From a virus: 64,000 nucleotides of DNA. Each line of letters starts with the position of its first letter. The first letter of the stretch is position 1. This document shows positions 21,930-59,215 of the stretch, in pieces. Location of the stretch: the IMG/VR virus record IMGVR_UViG_3300027754_003435; one strand, written 5' to 3'. Position numbers and translations under genes: made by a program. The notes under the pieces are model-generated. The model saw only the letters and a list, made by a program, of their open reading frames with translations. It made no database searches and was not told where the DNA came from.

Positions 21930-22718
21930 CTATGGTTCTAAATTTCTCATTAAACCAATAAGTTCTTCACTTATTGATAAATTTGTAAGATACGCAACAC
22001 CTTCTTTTTGCATAAGTTGTATTAATTTTTTACCAACTTGATTTTGCAATGGACTTTCCAATATACTTTTACCTTTTCTAAAAAGTTGAAGCATCAAATC
22101 AGAATATTCTTCTGAATCAGAACTGTATGATTTGTTATTATCAACTACATGAAAGTGTTGATTTCCAAAATAGCTTTGGAAAGCACCAATGTTATGTTGA
22201 ACTTCTTCCCATTTCTTTGCTACTATCATTGGTGGTACTTTTCTTGGACGCATTTGATTTCTTTGTTGAGCTATATCTAATGAAGTATTTACCATTACCA
22301 TGTCAACATCATATCCCAATGAATGTAACATACTTGAAACTCTCTGAATTTTAGGTAAATCTGCACCAGTTCCATCGATAAAAACAGGTAAACAACCGTT
22401 AACTATCTGAAAAAACTGATTTGAAGCCATTAATTTTGCTTTTTCTCTCTGAAACATCTGTGTAGAATATATATCAGAACCAGGGTCCATTATCAATGGA
22501 AGATTGTTTTTTTTCAATAAAAACTCGTAAAAAGTGTCAGAATTAACTACTTTTACCCCAAATGGACTGATTCCACCCGCTGTTGTACCTGTTAAAACCC
22601 CCAATACGAATCCTTTACCAGATCCAGGTCCACCGCCAAGAAACACTGCTTTGAATATGTTCTTGTCATGCACACTTTCTTTTAGTATACCTTCTATTAT
22701 TTTTTTTAGCTTAATCAT
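21930..22718 (-). CDS. P-loop kinase (zeta-toxin/AAA_33-like) with MIKL leader
   Basis: GGGPGSGKG Walker A, VFIDGTG, RNQMRPR lid; N-terminus MIKLKKIIEGILKE. Confidence 0.8.
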   Translation of the reverse strand: MIKLKKIIEGILKESVHDKNIFKAVFLGGGPGSGKGFVLGVLTGTTAGGISPFGVKVVNSDTFYEFLLKKNNLPLIMDPGSDIYSTQMFQREKAKLMASNQFFQIVNGCLPVFIDGTGADLPKIQRVSSMLHSLGYDVDMVMVNTSLDIAQQRNQMRPRKVPPMIVAKKWEEVQHNIGAFQSYFGNQHFHVVDNNKSYSSDSEEYSDLMLQLFRKGKSILESPLQNQVGKKLIQLMQKEGVAYLTNLSISEELIGLMRNLEP

Positions 22719-29964: not shown

Positions 29965-30381
29965 ATGGAGCTTAAAAATATGAGTACGAGTATGAAAAAA
30001 TTAGCGTGTGAAGGAAACAATCCATTAAGTAAATATTATCACACAGATCCATGCGATCAATACGTTAAAGTTGCTGATAACGTAGTTAAGGTTATTTGTT
30101 GGAAATGTACTTCCAAAGGAATTCCAGCACCAACTAATGTAAACAAATCAAATGCAGCAAGTGGGTTTCTTCGTGGTTGGAAGTTTATGAAAGAATTTGT
30201 ACATCAGAACGGAACTGTTTATCATAAGGGAGTAGAGCAACCAAGTCTACGTGGTACACTTGAACCAACGCCATTCAAAACTTCTAAGTCACGTAAAGTA
30301 AAACCTACGTTGGATGATAAAATTCAAGAAGAGTACAACAAGAAATTAAAAAATAAAAAATCTAAATCTAAAAAATCATAA
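29965..30381 (+). CDS. Hypothetical protein with Cys cluster (possible Zn finger) and basic tail
   Basis: C...C...CWKC; Lys-rich C-terminus. Confidence 0.75.
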   Translation: MELKNMSTSMKKLACEGNNPLSKYYHTDPCDQYVKVADNVVKVICWKCTSKGIPAPTNVNKSNAASGFLRGWKFMKEFVHQNGTVYHKGVEQPSLRGTLEPTPFKTSKSRKVKPTLDDKIQEEYNKKLKNKKSKSKKS

Positions 30382-37443: not shown

Positions 37444-38463
37444 ATGAGTGCAACTTTAGTTGAATATGTATGGCTTGATGGTTACACGCCAGAACCTACT
37501 CTTCGTAGTAAAATCAGAGTTTCCGATGGAGGTTCATCAGAACAATGGTCATTTGATGGTAGTTCTACTAAACAAGCGGAAGGAAACTTTTCAGATTGCA
37601 TTCTTAATCCAGTAAAACGCTATCATGGAACTAATAGAAATGATAAGATATTTGTTTTATGTGAAGTTCTTAACTCAGATAGAACACCACATGAATCGAA
37701 TGATAGACATAAACTGGATTTTTCCATATATTCCTCTTTAGATAATTCTGCGGAATCACCTTGGTTTGGATTTGAACAAGAATATTTTATACGGCAGGGA
37801 CATAAAAAAAACATATTAGGTTTTGAATCAAATTATTCAACAGAAAAACAAGGCAAATATTATTGTGGTGTTGGAGGACTTATATTTGGAAGACACTTAT
37901 CAGATGAACACCTTGAAATGTGTTTGAAATATGGTATAGGTATAGAAGGAACAAACGCTGAAGTTGCTGTTGGTCAATGGGAATATCAAATTTTCGGTAA
38001 AGATATTCTTACTGCATCGGACGATTTGTGGATGTCTAGGTATTTCTTGTTCAAATTGGCAGAAAAATATGGTTATGATATAGAATTACACCCTAAACCA
38101 CTACAAACTGGTGATTGGAACGGCTCTGGACTACATACAAACTTCTCAACCCCAAGAATGCGTGATGTTGGTGGTGATGAATACTTTAATAAAATATTCA
38201 AACAATTTGATAAAGATAAAGAAATACACATTGCTAACTACGGTTCTGACAACCATTTACGTTTAACTGGCAAGTTTGAAACACAAGATATAAACAAATT
38301 TACGTGGGGTATTGCAGATAGGGGTGCTTCAATACGTATACCAACAGGAACAGCGGAAAATTGGTGTGGATATTTAGAAGATAGAAGGCCAGCTTCAAAC
38401 GCTAATCCATATAAAGTTACTAAGGTAATATTGGATTCTATGTACGAAGTTGATAAAAAATAG
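37444..38463 (+). CDS. glnA: Glutamine synthetase, type II (GSII-like)
   Basis: EYVWLDG, WSFDGSST, WFGFEQEY, NAEVAVGQWEYQ, DWNGSGLHTNFS, RGASIRIP and YLEDRRPASNANPY motifs; 339 aa. Confidence 0.95.
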   Translation: MSATLVEYVWLDGYTPEPTLRSKIRVSDGGSSEQWSFDGSSTKQAEGNFSDCILNPVKRYHGTNRNDKIFVLCEVLNSDRTPHESNDRHKLDFSIYSSLDNSAESPWFGFEQEYFIRQGHKKNILGFESNYSTEKQGKYYCGVGGLIFGRHLSDEHLEMCLKYGIGIEGTNAEVAVGQWEYQIFGKDILTASDDLWMSRYFLFKLAEKYGYDIELHPKPLQTGDWNGSGLHTNFSTPRMRDVGGDEYFNKIFKQFDKDKEIHIANYGSDNHLRLTGKFETQDINKFTWGIADRGASIRIPTGTAENWCGYLEDRRPASNANPYKVTKVILDSMYEVDKK

Positions 38464-38528
38464 GGAGATAGTAATTCTCAGGGAAACGGACGCTCTTTTA
38501 CTTGGTTGTTGGGGCGTCCATTTTTATT

Positions 38529-39083
38529 TTAATTTAATTCACGCATATAATCAGCTAGTTTAATATTCCATTTAACGTCGGGATATTTCATCGATAACTG
38601 TTTCACAGCCATTACATTAGGTCTTGCATCATCAATAAAGAACACGTCATTGTACCCTTGCTGTATTTTTGATTCTATCCAATCTGCTTTAGCTTGTGGG
38701 TCGGCAGAACCTACACCTACCACTTCTATGTTATTTATACCGATTGTTTGTAAGAACTGTTTAATATCGTTTGCAGCAGCACCTTTACGAGCTGTTAATA
38801 CCGTTATACGTCTCATACCAGTTGCTACGTATAATTTTCCAAGTATATTAGTTACTGACTTAATCTCTTGTGGACTTATTACTTGATTAAACTCAGAAAA
38901 GTCCAAGTTATCACCTGGTTGCTCACGATATATGGCAAACTCAGCCGGAGTTAATTTACTCATATTACCATGTCTATCGGTTAAAATAACCATAGATTTA
39001 GTCGTTGCAAGTGTGTCATCGAAATCAAATACTCTTAATTTCTTAGCTTCTTGCTCTTCTAGTAGTTCAGTTAATGTTATCAT
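38529..39083 (-). CDS. HAD-superfamily phosphatase with MITLTELLEE leader
   Basis: VFDFDDTL (motif I), LTAR (motif II), FIDDARPNV (motif IV). Start moved to ATG 39083. Confidence 0.85.
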   Translation of the reverse strand: MITLTELLEEQEAKKLRVFDFDDTLATTKSMVILTDRHGNMSKLTPAEFAIYREQPGDNLDFSEFNQVISPQEIKSVTNILGKLYVATGMRRITVLTARKGAAANDIKQFLQTIGINNIEVVGVGSADPQAKADWIESKIQQGYNDVFFIDDARPNVMAVKQLSMKYPDVKWNIKLADYMRELN

Positions 39084-39137
39084 CTCGGTTTCTTCTCCCA
39101 ACCTATTGACTTTCTATATTGTTCGTAGTTATTCATT
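39077..39137. repeat. 61 bp direct repeat, copy 1
   Basis: 58/61 identical to 39701..39761. Confidence 0.95.
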
Positions 39138-39707
39138 GTCCAATCCTCCTGAAGTGCTTTTCATTGAGAGTATTTTTGTATTTAACGGATTGAATATAAC
39201 AATTTCTTTTTCGCCATTTCCTATAATTCCATTAATACCAATATCATCCATCATTTCTGATAATTGTTTATCACTTATTGGAAAAATTCTTAGAATTTTA
39301 TTATATAAATCTATACCGTTTTTAGAATCTTTTATGATATTATTAATGATAAATAACTTTTGCTCATTACTCATTCTTTCGCCTTTATTATCTACAATAT
39401 CATTATTAATACTAAACATATTTCTTACTTTATCTAAATTAGATTTACTTACCTTTTTATTATCAGATAAAAAATTTAAACGGTTTGGTATTTTTACGTT
39501 ATATACATAACCACCTTTTGCATAATGTGTAGCAAGATTTTTAATAGTTGTTAAATATATACCATAACCATATTCATCGCCACCCGTTTTTTTACCAACA
39601 TCTTTTTTTAAATTATCAAATTTATATGGTGAACCATGATAATAAATAATATCATTCATAATATTTTCGTTTAGATATTCTTTTAGTAGTTCTGATAATT
39701 TTATCAT
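39129..39707 (-). CDS. ADP-ribosyltransferase-like protein (ART-PolyVal-type pattern) with MIKLSELLKE leader
   Basis: YYHGS...YGYGIYLTT...ATHYA...EKEIVIFNP. Start ATG 39707 (alternative 39725). Confidence 0.65.
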   Translation of the reverse strand: MIKLSELLKEYLNENIMNDIIYYHGSPYKFDNLKKDVGKKTGGDEYGYGIYLTTIKNLATHYAKGGYVYNVKIPNRLNFLSDNKKVSKSNLDKVRNMFSINNDIVDNKGERMSNEQKLFIINNIIKDSKNGIDLYNKILRIFPISDKQLSEMMDDIGINGIIGNGEKEIVIFNPLNTKILSMKSTSGGLDNE

Positions 39708-39761
39708 CTTGGTTTCTTCTCCCATCCTATTGACTTTCGATATTGTTCGTAGTTATTCATT
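39701..39761. repeat. 61 bp direct repeat, copy 2
   Basis: Spans the 3' end of 39704..40648 and the start of 39129..39707. Confidence 0.95.
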
Positions 39762-40648
39762 ACCCAATTTACTATACTATTTGGATCATTATTGTATATT
39801 GCATTTGTTTGTATCAAGGGTTTTCCATCCTTTGAATGTATAGTATAAGTTTCCATTGCCTCATCAACAAACACAATATCTCTTGCGGTTTTACCATGAA
39901 ATATAACTTGAAATTCTTGATCTGAATGATGCCAACATCTTATGCCAGACGCACGGAATATTAAGAAAGTTCCATCACCGTACTTCAGTGCTTGGCCATC
40001 AACACCATATTTAGCAAAGTCTTCTGGTGTATAAGCAAAATTATACCCCTCACCTATCTTTTTACCTTGCAACCATGTTGTTAATCCTAATTTAGTTGGA
40101 TCCGCAATACCCTTAATAAAACCTTTTCTTGCCATCATCCGTCCGTCCATACGTGTTGTTCCATGAACTAACCATTGATTCTTTACCAATGTTGGTTCAT
40201 GTAAATAAAACCATGACGGTATGTCAGCTGGTTGTATACCAAAACCATCCATAAACGCCATAAACGATTGTTCTTCTGCATATATCTTGTCCATTAACCA
40301 ATCAACGATTGCACCATACGATACTGGATCTTTCTGTTTAAGTACATCCCATTTACGAAGCTCCAATGCTTGAGTATACAGTTGTATTTTAGGAACAGCG
40401 TTCGGATCCGCCCGTACGGGTTTATTTTGGTTGTGAATTTGAGGAGGGGTGAACCCAGGATTCGAGCGAAATTGGAATTTTGAATATAAATTTTGTGTTT
40501 TGATAAAATATTCATCAATTATTTGTTTATATCCAATCATACCGACTATTTCATCCGCCATTTGTTCTGGTGTAGAATCTAAATACTTCCATAATGTAAC
40601 AACATCGGTATCTACATATTCTTTTAGAAGGTCTTTTAGCTTAATCAT
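39704..40648 (-). CDS. ADP-ribosyltransferase-like protein (H-Y-E-type fold candidate) with MIKLKDLLKE leader
   Basis: LVHGTT...GF...GYNFAY...KYG...DQEFQVIF; homologous to 48573..49220. Confidence 0.5.
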   Translation of the reverse strand: MIKLKDLLKEYVDTDVVTLWKYLDSTPEQMADEIVGMIGYKQIIDEYFIKTQNLYSKFQFRSNPGFTPPQIHNQNKPVRADPNAVPKIQLYTQALELRKWDVLKQKDPVSYGAIVDWLMDKIYAEEQSFMAFMDGFGIQPADIPSWFYLHEPTLVKNQWLVHGTTRMDGRMMARKGFIKGIADPTKLGLTTWLQGKKIGEGYNFAYTPEDFAKYGVDGQALKYGDGTFLIFRASGIRCWHHSDQEFQVIFHGKTARDIVFVDEAMETYTIHSKDGKPLIQTNAIYNNDPNSIVNWVMNNYEQYRKSIGWEKKPR

Positions 40649-41279
40649 ATTTTTCCATATTATTTAAGTGAGAAGGTGAAGTGGCGAGTGAAGCAGCGGC
40701 ACCACCCAACCCCATACTACTCTTATTAATTGTGTCGTTGCTGTTCCCTACGATTTTCGGTTTAGAAATCACTTTATCATTAAATATCACTAAAATGTCA
40801 TCATTTACGTCATTTCTTACACGTAATCCGTCTATTCCACACGAAAGCAGGAAATCAGATATTTTCTTAGGTTCTCTAACTTTAAGTATTCTACCAATAA
40901 AGTCATAGAACTCAGGAATATCGTCAATTACCGTGTTCGGCCCCCATACTTGTACGTCCCATTTTTCTTCTAAATTAGGTGGTAATTCCACTCTATCTCG
41001 TATCATTCCATTATATATTTTACGTAATTGGTCTTTAGAAACCTTTGCCCACATAATATCAGCCATATGTGGTATGTTTACTTCCATTATAACCGCACCA
41101 AATGACTTAGCTCTTTCCCAATCTTTAATGAAATAAATACCCCATCCCCAATAAGAGTGTATTTTATCCCCACCTTTACCTACCTTATTATACGAGAATT
41201 TAGTCACAGGTTGAGCACTACCATGATACCATATACCGTCGTTAGCCATTTCTTTTAATATGTCTTTTAATTTTATCAT
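40641..41279 (-). CDS. ADP-ribosyltransferase-like protein (ART-PolyVal-type pattern) with MIKLKDILKE leader
   Basis: WYHGS...YWGWGIYFIK...AKSFG...GIDG...DDILVIFND; paralog of 39129..39707. Start 41279 or 41285. Confidence 0.65.
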   Translation of the reverse strand: MIKLKDILKEMANDGIWYHGSAQPVTKFSYNKVGKGGDKIHSYWGWGIYFIKDWERAKSFGAVIMEVNIPHMADIMWAKVSKDQLRKIYNGMIRDRVELPPNLEEKWDVQVWGPNTVIDDIPEFYDFIGRILKVREPKKISDFLLSCGIDGLRVRNDVNDDILVIFNDKVISKPKIVGNSNDTINKSSMGLGGAAASLATSPSHLNNMEKYD

Positions 41280-41281
41280 TT

Positions 41282-41644
41282 TCATTTTCGCATACGAAGT
41301 AAGGACAAATCGATAGTATCCCGAACATCTCGCTTTACAGCACCACGTTTTCCACCTCTAGTATGACCAACACTCACTTCTTTTCGTGTATGTGTGTCTT
41401 CGTGATCACTAGTTATGTTTCTATTGTATAAGAACGCCATTTCATACATTTGTTCATGTAGGAGTTTAACCTCGCCATTAACGTCTTTATACGATGTAAT
41501 AGTAGTATCTACTGTTTGTTGTAGAGTCTGAATTGTCATTTTAGCGTAGTAATAGAAGCCGATCAGGGTGGAAAGCACCCCAATTATCATTCCTAATTGT
41601 GGCAGGGTTATTGTGAACTTCTTATTTGTTATATCTTCTGGCAC
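41282..41644 (-). CDS. Single-pass membrane coiled-coil protein
   Basis: TM LGMIIGVLSTLIGFYYYA; GTG start; first gene of the late-type operon. Confidence 0.7.
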   Translation of the reverse strand: MPEDITNKKFTITLPQLGMIIGVLSTLIGFYYYAKMTIQTLQQTVDTTITSYKDVNGEVKLLHEQMYEMAFLYNRNITSDHEDTHTRKEVSVGHTRGGKRGAVKRDVRDTIDLSLLRMRK

Positions 41645-41692
41645 TTTATTTCTCTCTTTACACTATAGTTTTACACTACTATTAACATATAT

Positions 41693-41720
41693 ATAAATAT
41701 ATAAATACTATAATATTTAT
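41693..41720. promoter_or_regulatory. Divergent late-type motifs (TATATTTAT on -, AATATTTAT on +)
   Basis: ataaatata at 41693-41701; aatatttat at 41712-41720. Confidence 0.5.
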
Positions 41721-41756
41721 ACCTATATACATTTTAATGATTATCGAGAATGAGTT

Positions 41757-41912
41757 ATGAGATTGAATGAAGACATTACAGTAAATGGCAATTTAAGTCA
41801 GATAGATAATTCACCCCTATACATGATAAACGACCTTATCTTCACGAGTGCTGGAGAATGGGAGAAATTAGTCCTTGTGGTGAATAAGCCCGCAACAGAA
41901 ATAGATGAGTAA
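41757..41912 (+). CDS. Possible 51 aa peptide
   Basis: MRLNEDITVNGNLSQIDNSPLYMINDLIFTSAGEWEKLVLVVNKPATEIDE; late-type motif upstream; no homology support. Confidence 0.4.
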   Translation: MRLNEDITVNGNLSQIDNSPLYMINDLIFTSAGEWEKLVLVVNKPATEIDE

Positions 41913-42046
41913 TATTTACCCTTATATGTTGAACAAGAGTAAATATTTGGTATTTTTACTTGGACACTATGTCCAAGTTATTGTCCAAGTCACACAAACC
42001 AATGCGGATTTTAAAGTGGTCGAATTCCACCACTTTACTTTACCAT

Positions 42047-42115
42047 TTAATGCGGGATATATCATTCATTAAGTCTGTTTTATGGTGTTAATGCGTGATA
42101 TAACATTCATTAAGT
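42047..42115. repeat. Two 28 bp direct repeats (period 41), each TTAATG-N14-CATTAA
   Basis: ttaatgcgggatatatcattcattaagt and ttaatgcgtgatataacattcattaagt. Confidence 0.85.
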
Positions 42116-42436
42116 GGGTGTATGCCGAAGGGTATAAATTCATTTAAGTTTTTCTATAGTAAAAAAATTGACCTCGATAAAAAAACGGATGAGCGCGCCA
42201 CCCCTCACCCCTACTCCCCCTGGCCATTTACGTTAAATTGGCCCACCCCCACCCCAGTGATGATTATTGTATAAGCCCGTTTATTTACAATAACTTAGCT
42301 TCCCCCACCTACCCCTATATCCCTATTATTATTTCATTTGGTTATTAAATTATCTTTCGTATTTTTGCTGTCAGATTAAACCTGATATAGTTACTATGAA
42401 AGATAAATTTATTATATGTACCGATGAAATAAATGA

Positions 42437-42468
42437 TTTGGTTAGTATCTAATAATTCCGTATATTTG
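42437..42468 (+). promoter_or_regulatory. Promoter TTTG-N20-TATATTTG with no ORF downstream
   Basis: Exact consensus inside the non-coding region. Confidence 0.6.
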
Positions 42469-42527
42469 TAGTATAAGAAATGGGGAAGGAGATAACGGGT
42501 ATATATAGAAACCGATTGAAACAATCG

Positions 42528-42559
42528 TTTGGAAGTTATCTCAAAATTTCTTATATTTG
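42528..42559 (+). promoter_or_regulatory. Second tandem promoter TTTG-N20-TATATTTG with no ORF downstream
   Basis: Exact consensus 91 bp after the first. Confidence 0.6.
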
Positions 42560-43424
42560 TATTATAAATGATTGGTTGATATTTGAACACAGTAGAATGG
42601 AAGTAGACAGTAAGTCTCGTTAGTATACTATAGTATATACTATATAGAAGCAGTAAGTTCTGAAGAGTTCTATTTCATTTCCCAATTTAAACGAGGGTAA
42701 CTATATAGTAGTTATATAGTATCCATATAGTATATACTTAACGGTAATACCAAGGGTAAATAAATCAAGGGTAATTACTTAGGGCAACCCTAATGATGTA
42801 CAGTTAGTATAGTATATACTATATACCAATAGAGAATAATGTGCGATGAAGTTACGGTTATAATCCGTCTAGTAGTCAATATCATTATTCTCTTTTTTTA
42901 TTTCAACTCTATGCATGCGTACACTTTTGGATACCCTAACACCTCATACATGGAAAACTAGTAATATAAGGCGTGCTGTTCAATGAGACAAGTGCGGCTT
43001 CCCACATTACAAATATAACGTATATACATCCCATAATGAAATTAAATAAATAATTTGTTTAAAATGATAAATAAATTATATCGGAATAACCAAAGGATTT
43101 ATTTAATTAATAATTTTTATATTACAAAAATGCATATTTCATTAGGAAATTACAATGCGCGTAAGCCGTTGAGCTATATAGAGTTACAGAGATGGCAAAT
43201 GGAAATGAGCGGGCTCACTCAGATTCACCACATCTTCCCACTTCAACCCACACCACACTATATATTACCCACAGTATAGATATACATTAACTGGACATTA
43301 ACTATACACATACTATGTAATAATATTTTATTATATGGTAACATGAATGGAGTGAAATTGTACAATAATAGTTATAGGAGTATATTGTGGGTAACATTAT
43401 CATCACTTATATAGTATATAAACA

Positions 43425-43456
43425 TTTGGAGTATTAGAATGGAATCATTATATTTG
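43425..43456 (+). promoter_or_regulatory. Promoter TTTG-N20-TATATTTG for the TonB-receptor operon
   Basis: Exact consensus about 180 nt upstream of 43637. Confidence 0.65.
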
Positions 43457-43636
43457 CATTGGGAACGTATAGTATTCCTTATACTTACTATTGTATTCTC
43501 TATAGTATTCAATATTAGTTATAAGAAAGATTGTTTAAGTTGTATTGAAGTAGTAGTAATAGTATATACTATAGTACTGATATTATTTAGTGTACCGTTC
43601 GTTTTTTTGAAATGATTTTAGTTTGAGGAATTTGAT

Positions 43637-43948
43637 ATGAGTAATACAAGAGTAGTACTTACACAATGGAAGTCAACACATTGGGATGTACTTTGGAGCT
43701 ATAACTTTACTAAGTTACAATTGGATGAGTTAGATTCATATACTACTTCATTGGGAAGTAAGTTTAGCGAACCAACTCTATGGGGTTACGCATTCGGTAA
43801 AGATTATATTGAATCATTACTCTTGTTCTTAAAAGAGTATACTAATGATATAACTAACAAGGATGTGGAACTACTTAATAGTATAGTACACTTATTAGTA
43901 CAATGTTACTACTATCCTACCGCGACTGTTATGAATGATGGCAAATGA
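43637..43948 (+). CDS. Hypothetical protein
   Basis: 103 aa; GAGG upstream; ATGA overlap with the TBDR gene. Confidence 0.7.
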   Translation: MSNTRVVLTQWKSTHWDVLWSYNFTKLQLDELDSYTTSLGSKFSEPTLWGYAFGKDYIESLLLFLKEYTNDITNKDVELLNSIVHLLVQCYYYPTATVMNDGK

Positions 43949-46746
43949 ATAATTTAATTTATATTGGGATTAATGTAATGAAAAAAAGTATGGTGTTCTT
44001 ATTCATACTATTGAGTTTATTGAATAGTGTGATTGGAAAAGGTGTTGGTGTTCTTAGTGGTATGGTAAAGAATAAAGAAACAGGCGAACTTATTCGTTCT
44101 GCTACTATTCGTATTAAAGGAACTAAGTGGGGAAGCCAATCTGATGTTAAAGGTAAATTTATTATTAAAGGAATTCCGTCTGATTCTTTGTTTACTGTTA
44201 GATGTTCTTTCGTTGGCTATAGAACTATTGAGATTGATTCTATTTTAGTTACCGATGGAGAAATGAAAACATTGGATCTTTTACTTGAAGAACAAGTAAG
44301 TAAAACAGATGAAGTAATAGTTGAAGTAAGACGTTCTACGGAAAGCCAATCTACTGTATTAGCCCAACGTAGAAATGCTGCTAATGTTTCGGATGGTATT
44401 TCTAAAGAAGAAATAACGAAGTCAAGTGATGGTGATGCAGGACAAGCTCTAAAGCGTGTTTCGGGTGTTACATTAGTAGGTGATAAGTTTATTTATGTAC
44501 GTGGTGTAAGTGATCGTTACAACACTACGACATTAAACGGAGCTACACTTGCGACGACTGAGTCTGACAAACGTTCCTTCGCCTTCGATATGTTTCCATC
44601 CGAGTTCCTACAATCCGCAACCGTTACTAAATCGTTTACACCAGACTTGCCAGGTAATTTTGTTGGTGGTTTAGTTCAATTAAATACTATTGATTTTCCC
44701 GATGGGTTTTCATTAAAGGTAAACATTTCATCTGCCTTTAATACTAATACTACATTGCAAGATAACTCATTCTCTATTGGTGGTATACCGACTCGACTTC
44801 CAAGTAGTACACCGTCTTCTCGTAAAGAAATGGATAAGTTAATACGGGATGCTTATGCAGGTGTTGAAGACGCACAGGATAAATTACAAGGATTTGGTAG
44901 AGACTTGAAATCAACTTCTTGGAAACAAGATAGTATAACAGCCAATCCAAATACAAGCACTAACATTTCATACACAAACATATTCGATGTGTTCGATAAT
45001 GAGTTGGGTATTATTGGTTCGGTATTCTATAACAATACATTCTCTATTAAAACCGCAGGTGATAGAAACACAACATTGGGTGATGGTTCTTATGAGCGTA
45101 TAAGTTCTGGCAAGGTTTCAAATGAATCTATCAATTCCGGTGGTATGGTAAACGTAGCATATAAAATAGGTTCAAATCATTCTTTATCTATTAAGAACAT
45201 TATCAATAAATCATTTGACTTGGAAGTTCTTAATCTAAGTGGTACAGACTCTACACAAGGTATTGACTTCAAACAATATTCTTCTCAATACTTAGAGAAG
45301 AGTTTGGTTTCTTCACAAATTGGTGGTGAACATACATTACCGATTCAAAACATATTATTGGATTGGAGAATTGGTTATTCACATTCAGATAGAAATGAGC
45401 CAGACTTCCGTAGACTTAGATATTCAAGACAATCGACTTCACCTGATTTACCGTTCATTGCGGATATACAACCGATGGGTGATGGTACACTTGCTGGTAG
45501 ATTCTTTTCAGAACTTACCGATGAAGTTATAAACGGTGGATTGAACATAACGATACCGATGAGTACAACGTTCAAAATCAAAGTAGGTGGTATAACTGAA
45601 ATGCGGGATAGAGGATTTTTAGCACGTTCATTCGCCATTGCTTCAAATGATGCTGCGGGATTACTTGGTACTGATTTCTATGCAGGTTCACCTGATGTTA
45701 TATTTGATTCAAAGAACTTTGATAGAGTAGGTGATACGTTATACATACGTGAGGATTCAAAACCAAGTGATGGGTATTCTGGAACAGAAACACTTTATGC
45801 TGGTTACAGTATGGTTGACTTTGGGATTGGAGATTTCCGTATAATAACTGGAGTTAGATTAGAAGATAATAAAATTCAATTGAATGGCTTCTATTCAAAC
45901 GGTATTGTAGCAAATATAGATTACCATACATTTGATATTTTACCAGCACTTAACTTGATATACAAACTTGGTGACAATACAAACATTCGTAGTTCCGCTT
46001 CTCAAACACTTACACGCCCTACGTTCCGTGAGTTAGCACCCTTTGAGTTTTATAACTTCAATGACTTGGTTGTGGTACGTGGAAACACAGGACTACAACG
46101 AACACTCGTTCAAAACTATGATTTGAGATTTGAAACATTTATGAGCAGTAACGAGGTTTTTTCGATAGGTGGTTTTTTTAAATCGTTTGTTAATCCGATA
46201 GAAGAAACTCTAAGTGGCGAGACAGGTGGTAAGCCAGATAGAACTTGGCAGAACTCAAACGGTGTTGCTACTAATTGGGGAGCTGAAATAGAACTGCGTA
46301 AAACCATTGGTGATTTTCTGTTCAGTACAAATGTATCGCTTGTTAATTCACAGATAACAATAAGTCAAGGTAACAATACCGAAACAAGAACTATGTGGGG
46401 TCAGTCACCATATTCTATAAACTGTGGTTTATATTATACGAATGTAGATTTAGGAACTTCGGTGAATGTATCGTATAACCGAGTTGGTAGAAGAATAGTA
46501 TCGGTTACACAGTTAGGTCGCTTCCCTACATTAGAAGTTGATGGTAGTTCACCACACTGGTATGAAGAACCAAGAGACTTAGTAGATATTACAATAACAA
46601 AAAACATACTAAAAGGATTCGATTGTAAGGTTACGGTAAAAGATATTCTTAACCAAACTCTATATTGGAAGCAAGGTGATAGAATTGTTCAATCGAATGT
46701 ATTTGGAACAACAGCGAGTATTTCTTTAAGCTATAAATTGTTTTAA
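43945..46746 (+). CDS. TonB-dependent outer-membrane receptor with N-terminal carboxypeptidase-regulatory-like domain
   Basis: Signal peptide, LSGMVKNKETGE...TDVKGKF-type N-domain, plug ALKRVSGVT...YVRGVSDRYN, amphipathic beta strands, C-terminal SYKLF. Confidence 0.92.
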   Translation: MNNLIYIGINVMKKSMVFLFILLSLLNSVIGKGVGVLSGMVKNKETGELIRSATIRIKGTKWGSQSDVKGKFIIKGIPSDSLFTVRCSFVGYRTIEIDSILVTDGEMKTLDLLLEEQVSKTDEVIVEVRRSTESQSTVLAQRRNAANVSDGISKEEITKSSDGDAGQALKRVSGVTLVGDKFIYVRGVSDRYNTTTLNGATLATTESDKRSFAFDMFPSEFLQSATVTKSFTPDLPGNFVGGLVQLNTIDFPDGFSLKVNISSAFNTNTTLQDNSFSIGGIPTRLPSSTPSSRKEMDKLIRDAYAGVEDAQDKLQGFGRDLKSTSWKQDSITANPNTSTNISYTNIFDVFDNELGIIGSVFYNNTFSIKTAGDRNTTLGDGSYERISSGKVSNESINSGGMVNVAYKIGSNHSLSIKNIINKSFDLEVLNLSGTDSTQGIDFKQYSSQYLEKSLVSSQIGGEHTLPIQNILLDWRIGYSHSDRNEPDFRRLRYSRQSTSPDLPFIADIQPMGDGTLAGRFFSELTDEVINGGLNITIPMSTTFKIKVGGITEMRDRGFLARSFAIASNDAAGLLGTDFYAGSPDVIFDSKNFDRVGDTLYIREDSKPSDGYSGTETLYAGYSMVDFGIGDFRIITGVRLEDNKIQLNGFYSNGIVANIDYHTFDILPALNLIYKLGDNTNIRSSASQTLTRPTFRELAPFEFYNFNDLVVVRGNTGLQRTLVQNYDLRFETFMSSNEVFSIGGFFKSFVNPIEETLSGETGGKPDRTWQNSNGVATNWGAEIELRKTIGDFLFSTNVSLVNSQITISQGNNTETRTMWGQSPYSINCGLYYTNVDLGTSVNVSYNRVGRRIVSVTQLGRFPTLEVDGSSPHWYEEPRDLVDITITKNILKGFDCKVTVKDILNQTLYWKQGDRIVQSNVFGTTASISLSYKLF

Positions 46747-46776
46747 GTTGTTCGTACATACCAGACAACTAAAAAG

Positions 46777-46806
46777 AAAAGGTGAGTAGAAATACTCACC
46801 TTTTTT
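46777..46806. terminator. Bidirectional terminator between convergent TBDR and CHAP genes
   Basis: AAAAGGTGAGTA-GAAA-TACTCACCTTTT. Confidence 0.85.
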
Positions 46807-46807
46807 A

Positions 46808-47440
46808 TTATCGTTGATCGAGAAGTGCAAAGTCTGTTATACGGAAATAATCGTATGGGTTTATGGTTCTTTTACGAGACCAGACGCCACCACCACTCCA
46901 TTGACTTCCACTCTTTCCAGATGATGTATTTCCTTCAATAGTTGTTCCGCTGTTACCCTGCCATTTGTCAGTAAATCCAACATGGCCGAATAAGGTTGCA
47001 CCACGTCTCCAAACTAAAACTGTACCAACCGGTATCTTCATATTCTCAAACGATACTTTTGTTGCTTTAATAGTTTTGTTTTTGGTTATGAAATGTCTAG
47101 CTAATCCAGAACGAGTTTTCATTGTAGTAACCTTTGCAGAATCAAGAACGAATGAAACAAATGCTGCACACCATTGGTTGCCTTTTGTTAATCCTACTGA
47201 TTTTAAAAAACGCTCAACCCAATATCCACCATTGTCTCCGACTTCTTTTGTACCAACTAATCCATAAGCAATACTTCGTACACGCTCATCATCAGTTTGT
47301 TTAACTACCGATAGTTTCTTCTCACAGCTTGAACATAAACTATCAGTTTTTTTAACTGTTTGAGAAGCAGAGTGCAGCGGTAAGGATGTTAGCAAACATC
47401 CAAATAGCGTAAGCAACAGGATTTGATGCAAGTATCTCAC
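46808..47440 (-). CDS. CHAP-domain peptidoglycan hydrolase with signal peptide (endolysin candidate)
   Basis: QWCAAFVS, GHVGF and TIEGNT catalytic motifs. Confidence 0.88.
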   Translation of the reverse strand: MRYLHQILLLTLFGCLLTSLPLHSASQTVKKTDSLCSSCEKKLSVVKQTDDERVRSIAYGLVGTKEVGDNGGYWVERFLKSVGLTKGNQWCAAFVSFVLDSAKVTTMKTRSGLARHFITKNKTIKATKVSFENMKIPVGTVLVWRRGATLFGHVGFTDKWQGNSGTTIEGNTSSGKSGSQWSGGGVWSRKRTINPYDYFRITDFALLDQR

Positions 47441-47615
47441 GGGTCTTTACCTCCTGAATTAAGTATGAATCAACAAACCACGCAGCCCCAACGGCAAGTG
47501 CGTACTTACTCAAACCAACAGCGAATGTGCTGAAATTACCATCCCCAAATGTTGCACCGATCGCTATCACGGATAAAACAAGTAGCGGTATGAATGTTTT
47601 TAAGTTTTCCAACAT
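47352..47615 (-). CDS. Holin-like membrane protein (3 TM)
   Basis: Three hydrophobic segments directly upstream of and overlapping the CHAP gene; GAGG before ATG 47615. Confidence 0.6.
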   Translation of the reverse strand: MLENLKTFIPLLVLSVIAIGATFGDGNFSTFAVGLSKYALAVGAAWFVDSYLIQEVKTREILASNPVAYAIWMFANILTAALCFSNS

Positions 47616-47677
47616 TTCAAAAACCTCCCATTTATTATAAAACACCTATGTAACAATAACTATAATACATACAAAAA

Positions 47678-47701
47678 AACCGTTAGTGTTTACTAACGGT
47701 T
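47678..47701 (-). terminator. Intrinsic terminator
   Basis: AACCGTTAGT-GTTT-ACTAACGGTT with an A-run on the + side. Confidence 0.75.
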
Positions 47702-47711
47702 ATTTGTTAAT

Positions 47712-47951
47712 TTAATCTTCTTGATTTTGTTGGAGTATTGTGTAGTACCCGCTTTCAACTTGACTGTGGAATTGATCCTGATTTATTTTACCAACAGAAC
47801 CATCTGAGTTATCTCGGAAGTAATAGAACATATCTGATATGTGAACTAGCTTCCAAGTTTTACGGAAGTTCTTATTAGTCTCCCAAATACATTGAACGTA
47901 ATCATGTATTTTTACTATCAAGCCATTGTATGCTTCAACTTCAGTTAACAT
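47712..47951 (-). CDS. Hypothetical protein
   Basis: 79 aa downstream of ardA. Confidence 0.65.
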   Translation of the reverse strand: MLTEVEAYNGLIVKIHDYVQCIWETNKNFRKTWKLVHISDMFYYFRDNSDGSVGKINQDQFHSQVESGYYTILQQNQED

Positions 47952-47964
47952 GAAAATCTATTCC

Positions 47965-48444
47965 TTACATCATTCTAAAATAGTGACCGTTTGATTCGGA
48001 ATAATCATACATAAGTTCTTTAGCAGTGCTTTCCCAATCAATATGAATATAACCTGGTAAGTCGTTCGGTATCTCTCCAAGTTGTTCACATAAGTCTCGT
48101 GCAAACTCTGCATCACTAGCAAATTGACCAGAGTATGCTTCATCTACATTGCAATATTGAACATCACAATTACGTGCCGCTTCCCAAATATCCATGTCAT
48201 CATAGTGACTATTAGGATAATTCTCAATGAAATCTTCCAAGTCATCAGGACTTAAAAAGTATGGTAAATCAGAGTAATCAATTTGAATATCATTCTTATC
48301 AATCAATTCATAATCCTCAATACTATTGTTTTCTGCAATTTCTAAGAATGCATCTTTAATATCATCTGAGGTGAAACAGCTATCGTCAATAGTAATCGAT
48401 GCTGTAAATAATGATGGTTTGTGACTTACTGATACTTCAAACAT
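47965..48444 (-). CDS. ardA: ArdA-like antirestriction DNA mimic
   Basis: Highly acidic; AYSGQFASDAEFA...YIHIDWESTAKELM...NGHYFR C-terminal ArdA pattern; early promoter-leader upstream. Confidence 0.8.
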   Translation of the reverse strand: MFEVSVSHKPSLFTASITIDDSCFTSDDIKDAFLEIAENNSIEDYELIDKNDIQIDYSDLPYFLSPDDLEDFIENYPNSHYDDMDIWEAARNCDVQYCNVDEAYSGQFASDAEFARDLCEQLGEIPNDLPGYIHIDWESTAKELMYDYSESNGHYFRMM

Positions 48445-48463
48445 AACTTTAATCCTTATTTTA

Positions 48464-48518
48464 TTGGTTGTTCTTAATCTTACATTACAAATATAAGGAA
48501 TTTCGCATTAAGATCAAA
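48464..48518 (-). promoter_or_regulatory. Promoter TTTG-N19-TATATTTG plus conserved leader
   Basis: Reverse complement reads tatatttg-taatgtaagattaagaacaaccaa. Confidence 0.8.
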
Positions 48519-48525
48519 GCACTAT

Positions 48526-48545
48526 TCCAACGGTAACTAAAATAA
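48526..48545. repeat. 20 bp direct repeat, copy 1
   Basis: tccaacggtaactaaaataa; 19/20 identical to 49229..49248. Confidence 0.75.
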
Positions 48546-48572
48546 AAATTGTAATTGTATATTGACGAAGTT

Positions 48573-49220
48573 TTATATTTTCCCCACGCTTTTTAAAAAT
48601 GTTGATAATTTTACATCAGTTTCAATTAAATTCATATTTTTATCATAAACATCCCAAATCCATTCCTTCGTGTTTTTGCTATCAATTTTCACATTTACAA
48701 TACAAACCACATCAATACCATGTGTCACATCAAAAACTATTTGAAATTGTTTATCACCAGTATTGTAAACTTTACAAAAATCATTAGATTTAAAAACAAT
48801 ACCCCATCCACCATATAAAAAATCTTTTTGGTATCTACTATCAATCTTTTTGTTAGTTAAATCAAATGCAAAACCGAAATTACCATCAATAATTTGTTCC
48901 TTACTTTTTCTTGTTTTAGTAAATGAAGAATAATATGCACCAACCCCACGAAAACCATTTTGTAAAATAGATGTTATATTTTCTTTGGTTGTTGAATGAA
49001 ATAACAATGTGTTTGTTGATAATTTTATTGCTGAATTTGGTTTGTATGAAAATCCTCTCTGTGGAGTTTTTTCCAAATTATTAACAACATTAACAAACTC
49101 ATCAATTGTGTTTATTTTCGTAACATCTTTTTTTGAAACACTTTCTTTTAAAATTTGTTGTTCATTCAAAACCTCTCGTATTGATAACATGTCTTTGAGT
49201 TTAATTCTTTTGTTTTTCAT
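48573..49220 (-). CDS. ADP-ribosyltransferase-like protein, homolog of 39704..40648, with IKLKD...ILKE leader
   Basis: LLFHSTT...GF...GFAF...LYG...DKQFQIVF. Confidence 0.5.
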   Translation of the reverse strand: MKNKRIKLKDMLSIREVLNEQQILKESVSKKDVTKINTIDEFVNVVNNLEKTPQRGFSYKPNSAIKLSTNTLLFHSTTKENITSILQNGFRGVGAYYSSFTKTRKSKEQIIDGNFGFAFDLTNKKIDSRYQKDFLYGGWGIVFKSNDFCKVYNTGDKQFQIVFDVTHGIDVVCIVNVKIDSKNTKEWIWDVYDKNMNLIETDVKLSTFLKSVGKI

Positions 49221-50506: not shown

Positions 50507-50737
50507 TTACTTATATATTGTTATTAGTGAAGTTAAAAGGTTTCCCCTGCCAACTATCGTGCCTATATGATCAAATGTTTTATCTGTTTTCGGATTGTAT
50601 ATACCCAATTTTCTACCTTGTCTATCTCTTAGTATATGCATACCAGTTGACAAAATTTCTAACGTACCAAGTGGAACACCACGTCTGTCACGTATGTAAT
50701 CTCGTCTTTCAAACAATATGTCCATTAGTTTAATCAT
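50507..50737 (-). CDS. Small protein with MIKLMDILFE leader
   Basis: 76 aa; CATATTTAT variant at 50742-50750 immediately upstream. Confidence 0.75.
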   Translation of the reverse strand: MIKLMDILFERRDYIRDRRGVPLGTLEILSTGMHILRDRQGRKLGIYNPKTDKTFDHIGTIVGRGNLLTSLITIYK

Positions 50738-50793: not shown

Positions 50794-52766
<1,973 letters not shown>

Positions 52767-57787: not shown

Positions 57788-59215
57788 TTATTGTAATCGA
57801 GCGTCTGCCAACGCTTCCGCTAACTCACCCATCAATTGTTTGAGGAATGGTATGTAATCTGCTCCTCTACCTGAACCAATGAAATTTAATCCAGATATGT
57901 TTGTAATATCACGATGCCCACCTGAGCCTTTTACTATAACATCATATACTGTTGTTGTTATACCATTGAGTATTGATTTTTGCTTTGATGAAAGTAATTG
58001 ATATTGTTTACCTGCAATATCTTTTACCATATTTTGAAATCCTGGACTCTTCGGTAAATTCATAGCAACCTCACCAAACAAAGCCATGAAGTCATCCATA
58101 GTGAAACCAATGGATTCTGTACTTCCTTTTTTTATATCCATTTCCATCTTTCTCTTAACATCACCCATTGTAAGTTGCATTGCTTGAAGTTCTGATTTGT
58201 GCTTATTCAATATACCCATCGCTAACTCACCCAAGTTAATTGGATTTGCACCTTTCTTGAATGGATTCTTAGATGCTTGTACCAATCCCATTGGCCAACC
58301 AATTACAAGGTACTCAGCAGTTGGGTTCATCTTGAATGGCGTGTATCTATCGTATCCACCTTTAGTCATTGTACCACCACCGTATTGAACTAAGCAAGTT
58401 CCAAACATTGCATATTGACCGTTCCCGAGTGTTTGTATTTCTCGTGGGCTTGTTATTTGTTTCATCTTTAGAGCGGGTGCTTGTGAAGCAAGGTATGATG
58501 CTGTTTTAGCAGGTAAATCTGCCCATGATAAACCACGTGCTGTAACTTCTTGTTTAATTACATTGTAGATAGAAACAAGTGAAGGACGTGCTTTCATTAC
58601 TAACGCTTCTAAGAAGCCAGGTTTGTTCTTGAATGCAAGAAGAACTTTATTAACTACCAATCCCATTGCTAATCTATTTGGTACAGCAGACATAGTTGGA
58701 TCGAACTCAAATACTGAACGCATTACTTGGTCTGGATTAATACCTTGTGAAGCAAAGTCAGCGGAATCAACTGTTGATATAATTTGAATATCTTGTGCAG
58801 GAAACAAATCAGTTGGTGAAATTTCCTGAGACATCGCTGCAACATTTGAAGGTGCGTGTTTGAATGCAGCAGATGTAGTTGGAGCAACACCTGCTTGTGA
58901 TTGATGGTGATCGGTATGAATGTGTACCATTGGTTTACCATGAGCAAAGTCAACGATAACAACTAATAAACCAGGTTCTGGTTTTTGAACTGCAAATTCC
59001 ATACCACCATACTGAATTTTTTCACATTTTACTAACTTAACACCATATTTTTCTAAGTATGCTTTCATACCGATTGCAGTTGTTACACCGTCTAAATCCA
59101 TGTGAAAGTATATCAAAGCCTTTTTTCTCGTTGCTGTTAATGCGTTAATGTTTCGGATTCCTGTTTCTGTAAGCGTCTGCTTTGCATCTGTCAACAGGTC
59201 TTTTAATTTTATCAT
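57788..59215 (-). CDS. DHH/DHHA1-family phosphoesterase with MIKLKDLL leader
   Basis: FHMDLDG, IVDF, TDHH and C-terminal GSGGH motifs. Confidence 0.8.
   Translation of the reverse strand: MIKLKDLLTDAKQTLTETGIRNINALTATRKKALIYFHMDLDGVTTAIGMKAYLEKYGVKLVKCEKIQYGGMEFAVQKPEPGLLVVIVDFAHGKPMVHIHTDHHQSQAGVAPTTSAAFKHAPSNVAAMSQEISPTDLFPAQDIQIISTVDSADFASQGINPDQVMRSVFEFDPTMSAVPNRLAMGLVVNKVLLAFKNKPGFLEALVMKARPSLVSIYNVIKQEVTARGLSWADLPAKTASYLASQAPALKMKQITSPREIQTLGNGQYAMFGTCLVQYGGGTMTKGGYDRYTPFKMNPTAEYLVIGWPMGLVQASKNPFKKGANPINLGELAMGILNKHKSELQAMQLTMGDVKRKMEMDIKKGSTESIGFTMDDFMALFGEVAMNLPKSPGFQNMVKDIAGKQYQLLSSKQKSILNGITTTVYDVIVKGSGGHRDITNISGLNFIGSGRGADYIPFLKQLMGELAEALADARLQ

Follow-up and report, generated by a model that had tools for sequence, protein, structure and literature searches.

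Introduction

The packaging of ADP-ribosyltransferases (ARTs) in phage heads is, as a general idea, already published: Alt of phage T4 is a known case, and polyvalent proteins and some 44% of phage ARTs are predicted ones (PMC5512222, PMC9503650). A stretch of 10 residues at the N-terminus of the T4 internal proteins, the capsid-targeting sequence (CTS), is enough for packaging; its positions 4 and 7 are important for targeting and its positions 8 and 10 for processing, the protease gp21 cleaves after L/I-x-E, and an Asp at position 10 blocks cleavage and not targeting (PMC9026906). A polyvalent protein is a single polypeptide that carries between two and fifteen effector domains of disparate kinds (Iyer et al. 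2017, PMC5512222), and ART-PolyVal is an N4-like, Tox-ART-HYD2-related domain found in such proteins (PMC5512222). Here we describe four ART-like genes in a 64,000-nucleotide stretch of DNA, referred to at its full length as the window, from the virus record IMGVR_UViG_3300027754_003435. They comprise two families, A (copies A1 and A2) and B (B-long and B-short), and three of them lie in one operon with a gene for a HAD-type phosphatase, these three and the phosphatase gene all beginning with a 10-residue tag of the form MIKLxDLLxE or a variant of it.

Our interpretation, to which we give a probability of roughly 0.55, is that the four genes represent two ART families and that the operon members are addressed to the head by their tag, cleaved, injected and used to modify the host. 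The tag most likely acts like the T4 CTS, and by this analogy packaging is a coherent reading of the locus. As to packaging, cleavage, injection, NAD+ use and targets, we infer the following course of events: the tag would draw each protein into the prohead core, the gp21-type protease would remove it after L8-x-E10, and the trimmed enzymes would enter the cell together with the DNA and, early in infection, ADP-ribosylate proteins or nucleic acids of the host.

With the T4 proteins IPI-III and Alt (PMC9026906, PMC3012670) the locus shares a 10-residue N-terminal tag common to unrelated proteins, with L or I at position 8 and E at position 10, an encoded gp21-family protease and gp23 capsid protein, and loci that vary between strains; T4 Alt is itself a head-packaged ART. 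In T-even phages, the loci of the internal proteins combine CTS tags with hypervariability (PMC3012670), and the cassette behavior of the window operon is similar. Unlike the T4 cargo of small basic inhibitors or the R-S-E enzyme Alt, the putative cargo here consists of H-Y-E ARTs and other enzymes; the tag has an unrelated sequence, the probable host is a freshwater member of the Bacteroidota, and the system is known here from sequence. Family A resembles ART-PolyVal (PF18760; Iyer et al. 2017, PMC5512222) in that it covers most of the profile, carries a strand-1 His, a strand-2 Tyr and, ahead of strand 5, an acidic residue, and is phage-encoded with predicted virion delivery, and the same phage has a fused copy as well, in a 763-residue protein. 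It differs in being a small stand-alone protein with a 10-residue tag and a score below the family cut-off, and A1 has Glu where the family has Asp. Bacillus phage G (at least 10 ARTs; PMC9503650) likewise encodes several ART paralogues of different families in one large myovirus-type genome, although those of the window phage carry a common N-terminal tag and lie in one coupled operon.

Results

Family A is a stand-alone form of a known phage ART domain

All four open reading frames (ORFs) proposed as ART-like in the initial annotation were confirmed, all on the minus strand (Table 1), as were their motifs and their division into two families. A1 and A2 are 31% identical over 168 residues (BLASTP E 2e-13), and both carry (Y/W)YHGS, (Y/W)G(Y/W)GIY and an acidic residue ahead of IVIFN, this residue being E in A1 and D-D in A2, where it precedes (I/L)VIFN. 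Both match the Pfam family ART-PolyVal (PF18760), A1 with E 1.3e-5 and 26.4 bits over profile positions 8-127 of 140 and A2 with E ~2.8e-4 and 22.1 bits; A1 also matches DUF3990. All of these scores lie under the curated cut-off. The same two families recur among 12 relatives, 11 of which match PF18760 (E <= 0.01, best 5.7e-7) and 9 DUF3990, and for some of them the PF18760 match is precomputed. Residues Y29-H30-G31-S32, G55 and Y57 (numbering of the 198-residue ORF) are among the invariant ones.

The predicted structure of A1 (predicted local distance difference test, pLDDT, 83.9) places strands at 28-32, 56-59 and 174-177, and family A shows both the split beta-sheet of the ART fold and the key residues on its strands: His (strand 1), Tyr (strand 2) and an acidic residue (strand 5). 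For the A1 model, Foldseek gave chain B of the cyanopodophage A4 pre-ejectosome as the best match (9k3a_B, E 2.6e-4), followed by tankyrases; structural matches of the family include poly(ADP-ribose) polymerases (PARPs), diphtheria toxin and AcrIF11. The PARP/diphtheria-toxin H-Y-E ARTs and the anti-CRISPR ART AcrIF11 (PDB 6kyf) differ from the window genes, which have no significant sequence similarity to them and no regulatory or receptor domains. Chain B of 9k3a (PMC12002296) differs in being a podophage protein of more than 1700 residues with no HMMER-detectable sequence similarity to family A. Because the aligned residues span 957-1610, with a root-mean-square deviation (rmsd) of 5.2 A, this match may be discontinuous. 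By its residue numbering, chain B is probably gp27, an ejection protein of cyanophage A4 that was resolved inside the capsid (PMC12002296). This ejection protein seems to hold an ART-PolyVal-like domain; the term 'ADP-ribosyl' is absent from the main text of that paper (PMC12002296).

A third A-like segment (AYHRSS...YGYGLYFS, E 2e-4) lies in the 763-residue multidomain polyvalent protein of the same genome, and on the contig of one relative the family A gene overlaps the end of a run of baseplate genes (gp25-like, then a 623-residue protein). The case for family A as ARTs is strong: it is a stand-alone form of the phage polyvalent-protein ART domain (ART-PolyVal / N4-like), and as such a new member of an already known family.

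Family B is a large, divergent ART-like module

Pairwise similarity between B-long and B-short is weak (E 2e-4), although their profiles align with an hhalign probability of 97.2% (E 3.3e-11, 150 columns); profile-profile comparison shows no relation between families A and B. There are 381 relatives of B-long in a 90%-clustered collection, none of them with a Pfam domain, and a joint profile of B-long and B-short recovers at least 1195 clusters at 50% identity, 950 of them at E <= 1e-10. Profile search with B-long gave no PDB match at E <= 10 and no PHROG match, no Pfam ART family was matched by B-long or 50 of its relatives, and tblastn against a cultured-phage collection (50,697 records) found no family B relative.

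The model of B-long (pLDDT 82.8) consists of a helical domain (~10-135) and a beta-rich domain (~145-310), the latter ordered strand-helix-strand-helix-strands, with strands at 149-164, 202-206 and 245-251. Foldseek searches of the PDB and BFVD with this model returned nothing at E <= 0.001; the weak top rows from the PDB were PARP2/3 catalytic fragments, Tpt1 and cholera toxin, and the two best BFVD rows, both also weak, were proteins of phage G. In a further structural search with family B, all 50 of 50 weak rows had the ART fold (DUF952, Rhs ART toxins, diphtheria and pertussis toxins, Tpt1, PARPs). For the C-terminal domain of B-long, a fold-independent search returned nearly exclusively ART proteins, among them TreX (4.9), Scabin (4.7) and the diphtheria and pertussis toxins (4.5), with PltA, pierisin, exotoxin A, Tpt1, tankyrase and PARP16 in further rows. 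A protein-language-model search with family B gave a viral PARP/DarT cluster, Arr and Tox-ART-HYD1 at 0.92, and the structure search run beside it gave Tox-ART-HYD1 Rhs toxins at TM 0.39-0.41. Faint Pfam PARP matches were found in 8 of 13 B-short relatives on the motif L-F-H-S-T-T...G-F, which corresponds to strand 1 and helix 1, and when the Pfam PARP profile was run against the genome it matched B-short and no other gene.

Conservation across 148 representative B domains falls on the residues expected of an ART of the H-Y-E clade. H162 is present in 144, Y202 in 127 (with F in a further 18), H240 in 146, D243 in 145, E245 in 143 and Q247 in 145, and G176-F177, F204 and Y223-G224 are also conserved. 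In the B-long model, H162 closes strand 1, Y202 opens strand 2 and E245 opens the strand at 245-251, which is the H-Y-E layout, so that the family has a His in strand 1, an aromatic residue in strand 2 and Glu, Asp or Gln in strand 5. The equivalents in B-short are H75, F115 and Q158. Gln replaces the Glu of the catalytic position in B-short and in all 13 of its relatives (D-K-Q-x-Q), which puts the activity of B-short in doubt; judged from its sequence, B-short may lack activity or act in another way. The published clade name H-Y-[EDQ] accommodates Gln at this position (PMC9503650).

These results bear on the possibility that the ART likeness of family B is a chance resemblance between common alpha/beta arrangements, that its function is unrelated and that family A is the sole ART. 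The empty Foldseek result at E <= 0.001 and the lack of any Pfam or PDB sequence match for B-long are what such a resemblance would produce. We nevertheless consider it very unlikely, since the weak rows are not random (50 of 50 structural rows, and nearly all rows of the wide search over 145-310, have the ART fold), the independent language-model search also gives ART families, B-short relatives match Pfam PARP on H-x-T...GF, the conserved H, Y and E lie on model strands 1, 2 and 5, and the fusion partners of B, described below, form an NAD+/ADP-ribose network. The ART reading of family B is probable, as a divergent ART-like domain joined to a helical domain. The assignment of all four genes to an H-Y-E-type ART fold in the initial annotation is thus well supported for family A by Pfam, relatives and structure, and probable for family B, in which the key residues are conserved and the B-long structural matches are of ART type but weak.

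ARTs of the R-S-E clade have Arg in strand 1, Ser-Thr-Ser in strand 2 and (Q/E)-x-E in strand 5. This clade, that of Alt, was ruled out for the four genes, in which strand 1 carries His and not Arg and the STS motif is missing. On sequence and model grounds, the four genes are assigned to two sequence-unrelated families of predicted ART fold within the H-Y-[E/D/Q] clade.

Three ART-like genes and the HAD gene share an N-terminal tag

The exact leader is present in A1 (MIKLSELLKE), B-long (MIKLKDLLKE) and A2 (MIKLKDILKE) and also in the HAD gene (MITLTELLEE). In B-short, the leader is moved five residues inward and is degenerate (MKNKR-IKLKDMLSIRE). The statement in the initial annotation that all four ART-like genes carry a packaging-type leader therefore needs to be narrowed: three have an exact tag in the T4 CTS format, in a genome that encodes the protease, and the fourth has a shifted and degenerate one. 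Together with a 76-residue protein (50507-50737), A1, A2, B-long and the HAD protein begin MI(K/T)Lx(D/E)(I/L)Lx(E). Of about 203 called genes, 7 have the pattern M-x-x-L-x-x-[IL]-L-x-[ED] at the N-terminus, where its internal frequency predicts 0.02-0.05. A looser pattern yields 8 tag-like N-termini, and none when the genome is reversed; as both patterns were picked post hoc, after the data had been seen, the resulting P value overstates the case.

The carriers of this shared propeptide of about 10 residues are otherwise unrelated, comprising ARTs, the HAD protein, a DHH-like protein, an S-adenosylmethionine (SAM) lyase and the 76-residue protein. L8 and E10 are found in A1, A2, B-long, HAD, the 76-residue protein and the SAM lyase, and the DHH-like protein has D10; an L/I-x-E site at positions 8-10 thus occurs in a genome with a gp21-family protease. 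At the positions named in the T4 CTS rules, the tag has L4, I/L7, L8 and E10. Its copies differ at many synonymous codon sites, which indicates that the peptide is conserved and is not merely recently copied DNA. Within the head module, a 178-residue protein adjoining the capsid gene contains ..IKLKKLLDE.., and an acidic scaffold-like protein begins MNDLLKE.

Among the other carriers, the 475-residue protein with a weak DHH phosphoesterase match (57788-59215) starts MIKLKDLLTD, with Asp at position 10. The SAM lyase (PF23780 E 1.1e-10; G000:C1:21865-22494, L017) starts MSKLSNILKE and has the late-type motif TATATTTA upstream; being tagged, it might be an anti-restriction enzyme that is packaged. 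A Zeta-toxin-like kinase (PF06414 E 4.8e-8; window 21930-22718) starts MIKLKKIIEGILKE, with MIKLKKII as a looser variant of the tag.

The operon is a set of coupled genes

A2, B-long, A1 and HAD are separate, translationally coupled genes behind a promoter motif of the structural type (Table 1). The 120-residue protein gene and A2 share an ATGA, as do B-long and A1; the overlap of A2 with B-long is 8 nt, and 45 nt separate A1 from HAD. A2 has 214 residues if its start is taken at the ATGA overlap, 41285. The ORF list placed the start of A1 at 39725 (MGEETK...), which is an artifact, the tail of B-long read in another frame; the genuine start is the ATG at 39707, which overlaps the B-long stop (ATGA). 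The only PHROG match of the 120-residue membrane protein is a weak one to an Rz-like spanin. The HAD gene matches the PHROG family phrog_415 'polynucleotide kinase' (E 3.4e-10) and Pfam DUF2608 (25.2 bits, cut-off 22.6), and has weak HAD matches.

Table 1. Positions of the operon genes, associated elements and B-short in the window
Feature	Position	Strand	Description
Promoter-like motif TATATTTA	41694..41701	-	About 50 nt ahead of the first operon gene; read from sequence
120-aa protein	41282..41644	-	ORF, first gene of the operon; one membrane helix; untagged, not an ART, strain-variable
A2 (family A copy 2)	40641..41279	-	212 aa from MIKLKDILKE; WYHGS, WGWGIYF, DDILVIFN; low-complexity C-terminal tail
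B-long (family B long copy)	39704..40648	-	314 aa; tag, helical domain ~10-135, ART-like domain ~145-310
90-nt direct repeat, copy 1	39679..39768	-	About 60 nt of the B-long tail end (..NNYEQYRKSIGWEKKPR), ATGA overlap, about 26 nt of tag start
A1 (family A copy 1)	39129..39707	-	192 aa from MIKLSELLKE; YYHGS, YGYGIYL, EKEIVIFN; 3' end frameshifted
90-nt direct repeat, copy 2	39055..39144	-	Flanks, with copy 1, the A1 cassette exactly
HAD-type phosphatase	38529..39083	-	184 aa, last gene of the operon; MITLTELLEE; DxDxT motif FDFDDTL
B-short (family B short copy)	48573..49220	-	215 aa; LFHSTT..GF, FGFAF, D-K-Q-F-Q-I-V-F; shifted tag MKNKR-IKLKDMLSIRE

Two classes of upstream motif occur genome-wide, with examples at window positions 29965, 32712, 47965, 49295 and 56062. 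One consists of TATATTTG followed by a conserved TATGTAAGATTAA(g/c)AACAACCAA and lies upstream of replication genes and small early-type genes; the other, TATATTTA(T), is located 39-56 nt upstream of structural genes. The view of this locus as one late-type operon next to a HAD gene is supported by its overlapping starts and stops and by TATATTTA placed as before structural genes, the motif not being that of T4, TATAAATA. Judged from this motif, the operon is presumably expressed late. B-short is flanked by two genes with the early-type motif, and its own motif is degenerate. One lake metatranscriptome yielded contigs that match the window without a difference over 38000-41649 and leave 41752-42000 uncovered; as DNA may be present in such libraries and the contigs show no transcript ends, we do not count them as proof of transcription or of a start site.

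Cassettes are exchanged at the tag junctions

The two copies of the direct repeat that bracket A1 are 90% identical and spaced 624 nt apart, each combining the tail of B-long, the ATGA and the start of the tag. The strain of the window has one extra base at 39162, which makes A1 about 16 residues shorter and uncouples it from the HAD gene; two other lake populations (runs X6 and X8) and P0001 are without it, and P0001, the nearest relative of A1 (97%), keeps the gene tail of the repeat in frame. The gene for the 120-residue protein is missing in two related populations from different studies, with joints 41284>41684 (X6, side 83) and 41287>41681 (X8, side 80); 16-21 other letters lie between, so that the DNA just downstream of TATATTTA meets the start of A2 almost directly. 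Similarity between contigs of different populations breaks at 40631-40656 and 41250-41288, which are tag junctions. A further joint, 40648>41256 (run X8), would remove the A2 cassette between two tags, and with its side of 24 letters we regard it as a weak hint.

In a 183-kb relative, the homologue of B-long is followed, through an ATGA overlap, by a different tagged protein of 203 residues (L003:6888-7499) that starts MIKLKDILTE. This protein contains VYHFTT .. GFYMSVA and, from its sequence, may be another ART-like cassette; it has no Pfam or PHROG match.

Such exchange is also what one would expect if the four proteins were real ARTs that are not packaged and act in the infected cell after their synthesis, like T4 ModA/ModB, with the N-terminus serving as a module-boundary helix and recombination junction. 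The repeat around A1, the breaks at tag junctions, the gain and loss of whole cassettes between populations, the different tagged gene behind the B-long homologue and the location of B-short among early-type genes all fit this explanation, as does the segment ..(I/L)(K/R)E(Y/F)(V/L/I).., which fused polyvalent proteins contain internally at the N-terminal border of their B module. Recombination homology alone, however, is insufficient to account for a tag peptide that is kept, despite synonymous differences, on distant genes; the length of the tag and its L8 and E10 fit T4 CTS processing, the matching protease is encoded, and tag-like N-termini occur within the head module. An address tag and a recombination junction are, moreover, compatible, given the T-even internal-protein loci that combine the two (PMC3012670). 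We therefore judge the unpackaged alternative to be somewhat unlikely and favor packaging of the operon members.

Family B is fused to ADP-ribose-related domains elsewhere

About 35 of the best 150 family B representatives are longer than 400 residues, up to 2370, and their domain partners include ART-PolyVal (6), NUDIX (6), GNAT (6) and 2H phosphoesterases (3-4). The protein P0222 consists of NUDIX, GNAT, B (609-852), ART-PolyVal (880-1020, E 1.7e-27) and GNAT, and P0154 of B (161-438) and ART-PolyVal (451-610). The order of B followed by A in these fusions is that of B-long and A1 in the window, so that the operon looks like a polyvalent protein split into genes. P0222 is found in phage-like contigs of 77-123 kb beside InPase and JAB genes and a second polyvalent protein (2858 residues). 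In the metagenomic protein P0113 (380 residues), which was called as a family B protein, the end of an N-terminal extension, ..GYDAIITMRNGSSGEIILFPN, is similar to the region of the C-terminal strand in family A; from sequence, this distant relative thus appears to have kept an A-like gene immediately ahead of B. The window genes are not a polyvalent protein, as they are separate and have their own starts and stops where polyvalent proteins hold 2-15 domains per polypeptide; the operon works like an unbundled polyvalent protein, though it is not itself one.

These partners raise the question of a different chemistry. Family B might transfer ADP-ribose to the end phosphates of RNA or DNA in the manner of Tpt1/KptA, or it might be a non-catalytic NAD+/ADP-ribose-binding or adaptor module for a neighboring ART-PolyVal. 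The NAD+ lobe of Tpt1/KptA (H-H-h clade) gives the lowest-rmsd superpositions with the family B domain, the 2H phosphoesterases and NUDIX enzymes fused to B process ADP-ribose phosphate products, a PNK-phosphatase-like HAD lies in the same operon (PNK, polynucleotide kinase), Gln replaces Glu in 13 of 13 B-short relatives, and B always adjoins or is fused to a canonical ART. We regard this explanation as unlikely: Pfam PTS_2-RNA (PF01885) matches nothing in the genome even at E 10, no counterpart of the Tpt1 Arg-His-Arg-Arg lobe was identified in family B, and E245 is nearly invariant (143 of 148), as a catalytic Glu of the H-Y-E clade would be. Family B also differs from Tpt1/KptA in its strand-2 Tyr and in its helical N-terminal domain.

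Genome setting and host

The window corresponds to bases 107483-171482 of a single virus contig of 177,312 bp with about 31% G+C. Its genes include those for a major capsid protein of the T4 type (Pfam Gp23, E 9.5e-77) and a prohead protease of the T4 gp21 type (Peptidase_S77, E 8.2e-31; genome 71632-72294), and baseplate wedge genes are present within the window. Nearly identical DNA recurs across many studies in metagenomes of lakes and fresh water, the upstream regions of the genome are enriched in TAnnTTT(G/A) motifs, which are of the Bacteroidota type, and a metagenome-assembled genome of the Flavobacteriaceae is the source record of one close relative of a studied gene. The phage is T4-like, and its host is probably a member of the Bacteroidota living in fresh water.

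PHROG annotation of the large neighboring genes returned almost nothing. From their translations, read by eye, we take the genes at window positions 37444-38463, 43945-46746 and 50794-52766 to encode a type II-like glutamine synthetase, a 933-residue TonB-dependent-receptor-like outer-membrane protein with a signal peptide, and a GroEL/GroES pair. The stretch of about 2 kb at 41650-43630 holds tiny ORFs only, with G-rich runs on the minus strand (for example, ~42215-42330) in AT-rich surroundings, and a search for tRNA genes in it found none.

In the head module, between scaffold-like and protease genes, lies a gene for a 337-residue protein (G000:C1:69751-70764; L010:5752-6765, minus). Its C-terminal part shows a pattern of the R-S-E type (LYR .. 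YVSTS .. ETEITLP), and several I-x-E sites lie near its N-terminus. Judged by this pattern, it is a candidate Alt-like packaged ART; it has no Pfam, PDB or useful PHROG match.

Discussion

Several points weigh against the interpretation that the operon members are tagged, head-packaged ARTs. It is built on sequence and model data, from which virion presence and cleavage are predicted. Both A1 and A2 score below the curated gathering cut-off of PF18760 (31.2 bits), and for this reason we file them as ART-PolyVal-like and not as curated members. The tag MIKLKDLLKE shares M1 and E10 alone with the T4 CTS, MKTYQEFIAE (as quoted in bioRxiv 10.1101/2021.01.19.427310), so that the two agree in format and are not similar in sequence. 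Part of the B-long leader, ..LLKE(Y/F)(V/I).., is also found within the chain of fused polyvalent proteins, where the B module begins, and there it is a linker or part of the domain and not a free N-terminal signal; from its sequence, this internal copy could equally be an internal protease site. On the 8-kb contig of one family A relative (L007), no neighboring gene shares the N-terminal segment of that relative, and the idea of phage-specific tags gained no support from it. The assignment of the operon to the late type rests on one AT-rich 8-mer in an AT-rich spacer, and the T4 late promoter TATAAATA is not enriched in the genome (19 occurrences, 16.3 expected). B-short, finally, sits among early-type genes with its shifted tag and, with Gln at the place of the catalytic Glu, is the worst fit of the four genes.

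A bolder extension of our interpretation, which we think quite unlikely, would treat the locus as an 'unbundled polyvalent protein' in a fuller sense. The 10-residue tag would be a portable capsid address that doubles as homology for cassette exchange, and the head would be loaded with changeable effectors: the two ART families, the phosphatase, the SAM lyase, the phosphoesterase and the loosely tagged kinase. Family B would then be an unnamed ART clade that, in the manner of Tpt1/KptA, ADP-ribosylates nucleic-acid ends bearing phosphates and not proteins and, with PNK-phosphatase-like, 2H and NUDIX partners, disarms RNA- or DNA-directed defenses.

Three aspects of the locus are new: ARTs and other enzymes bear a tag in T4 format in a T4-like phage that is not enterobacterial, a large ART-like module, family B, has no database family, and modules that are split into genes here are fused in polyvalent proteins elsewhere. 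If the proteins were not packaged, the locus would still show clearly that one phage can carry several ART paralogues and that cassettes can be exchanged where gene junctions are conserved. Family B enlarges the set of NAD+/ADP-ribose enzymes in phage-host conflict by its many clusters, and its recurrent fusion to ART-PolyVal, NUDIX, GNAT and 2H domains makes it a promising subject for biochemical work. Were the tag a capsid address, T4-style changeable head cargo would work far beyond the enterobacterial T-even phages, and giant polyvalent effectors would be replaceable by small, individually tagged, exchangeable enzymes. The tag would then also provide a short, testable signal for injected effectors in uncultured phages and for loading foreign proteins into phages of the Bacteroidota.

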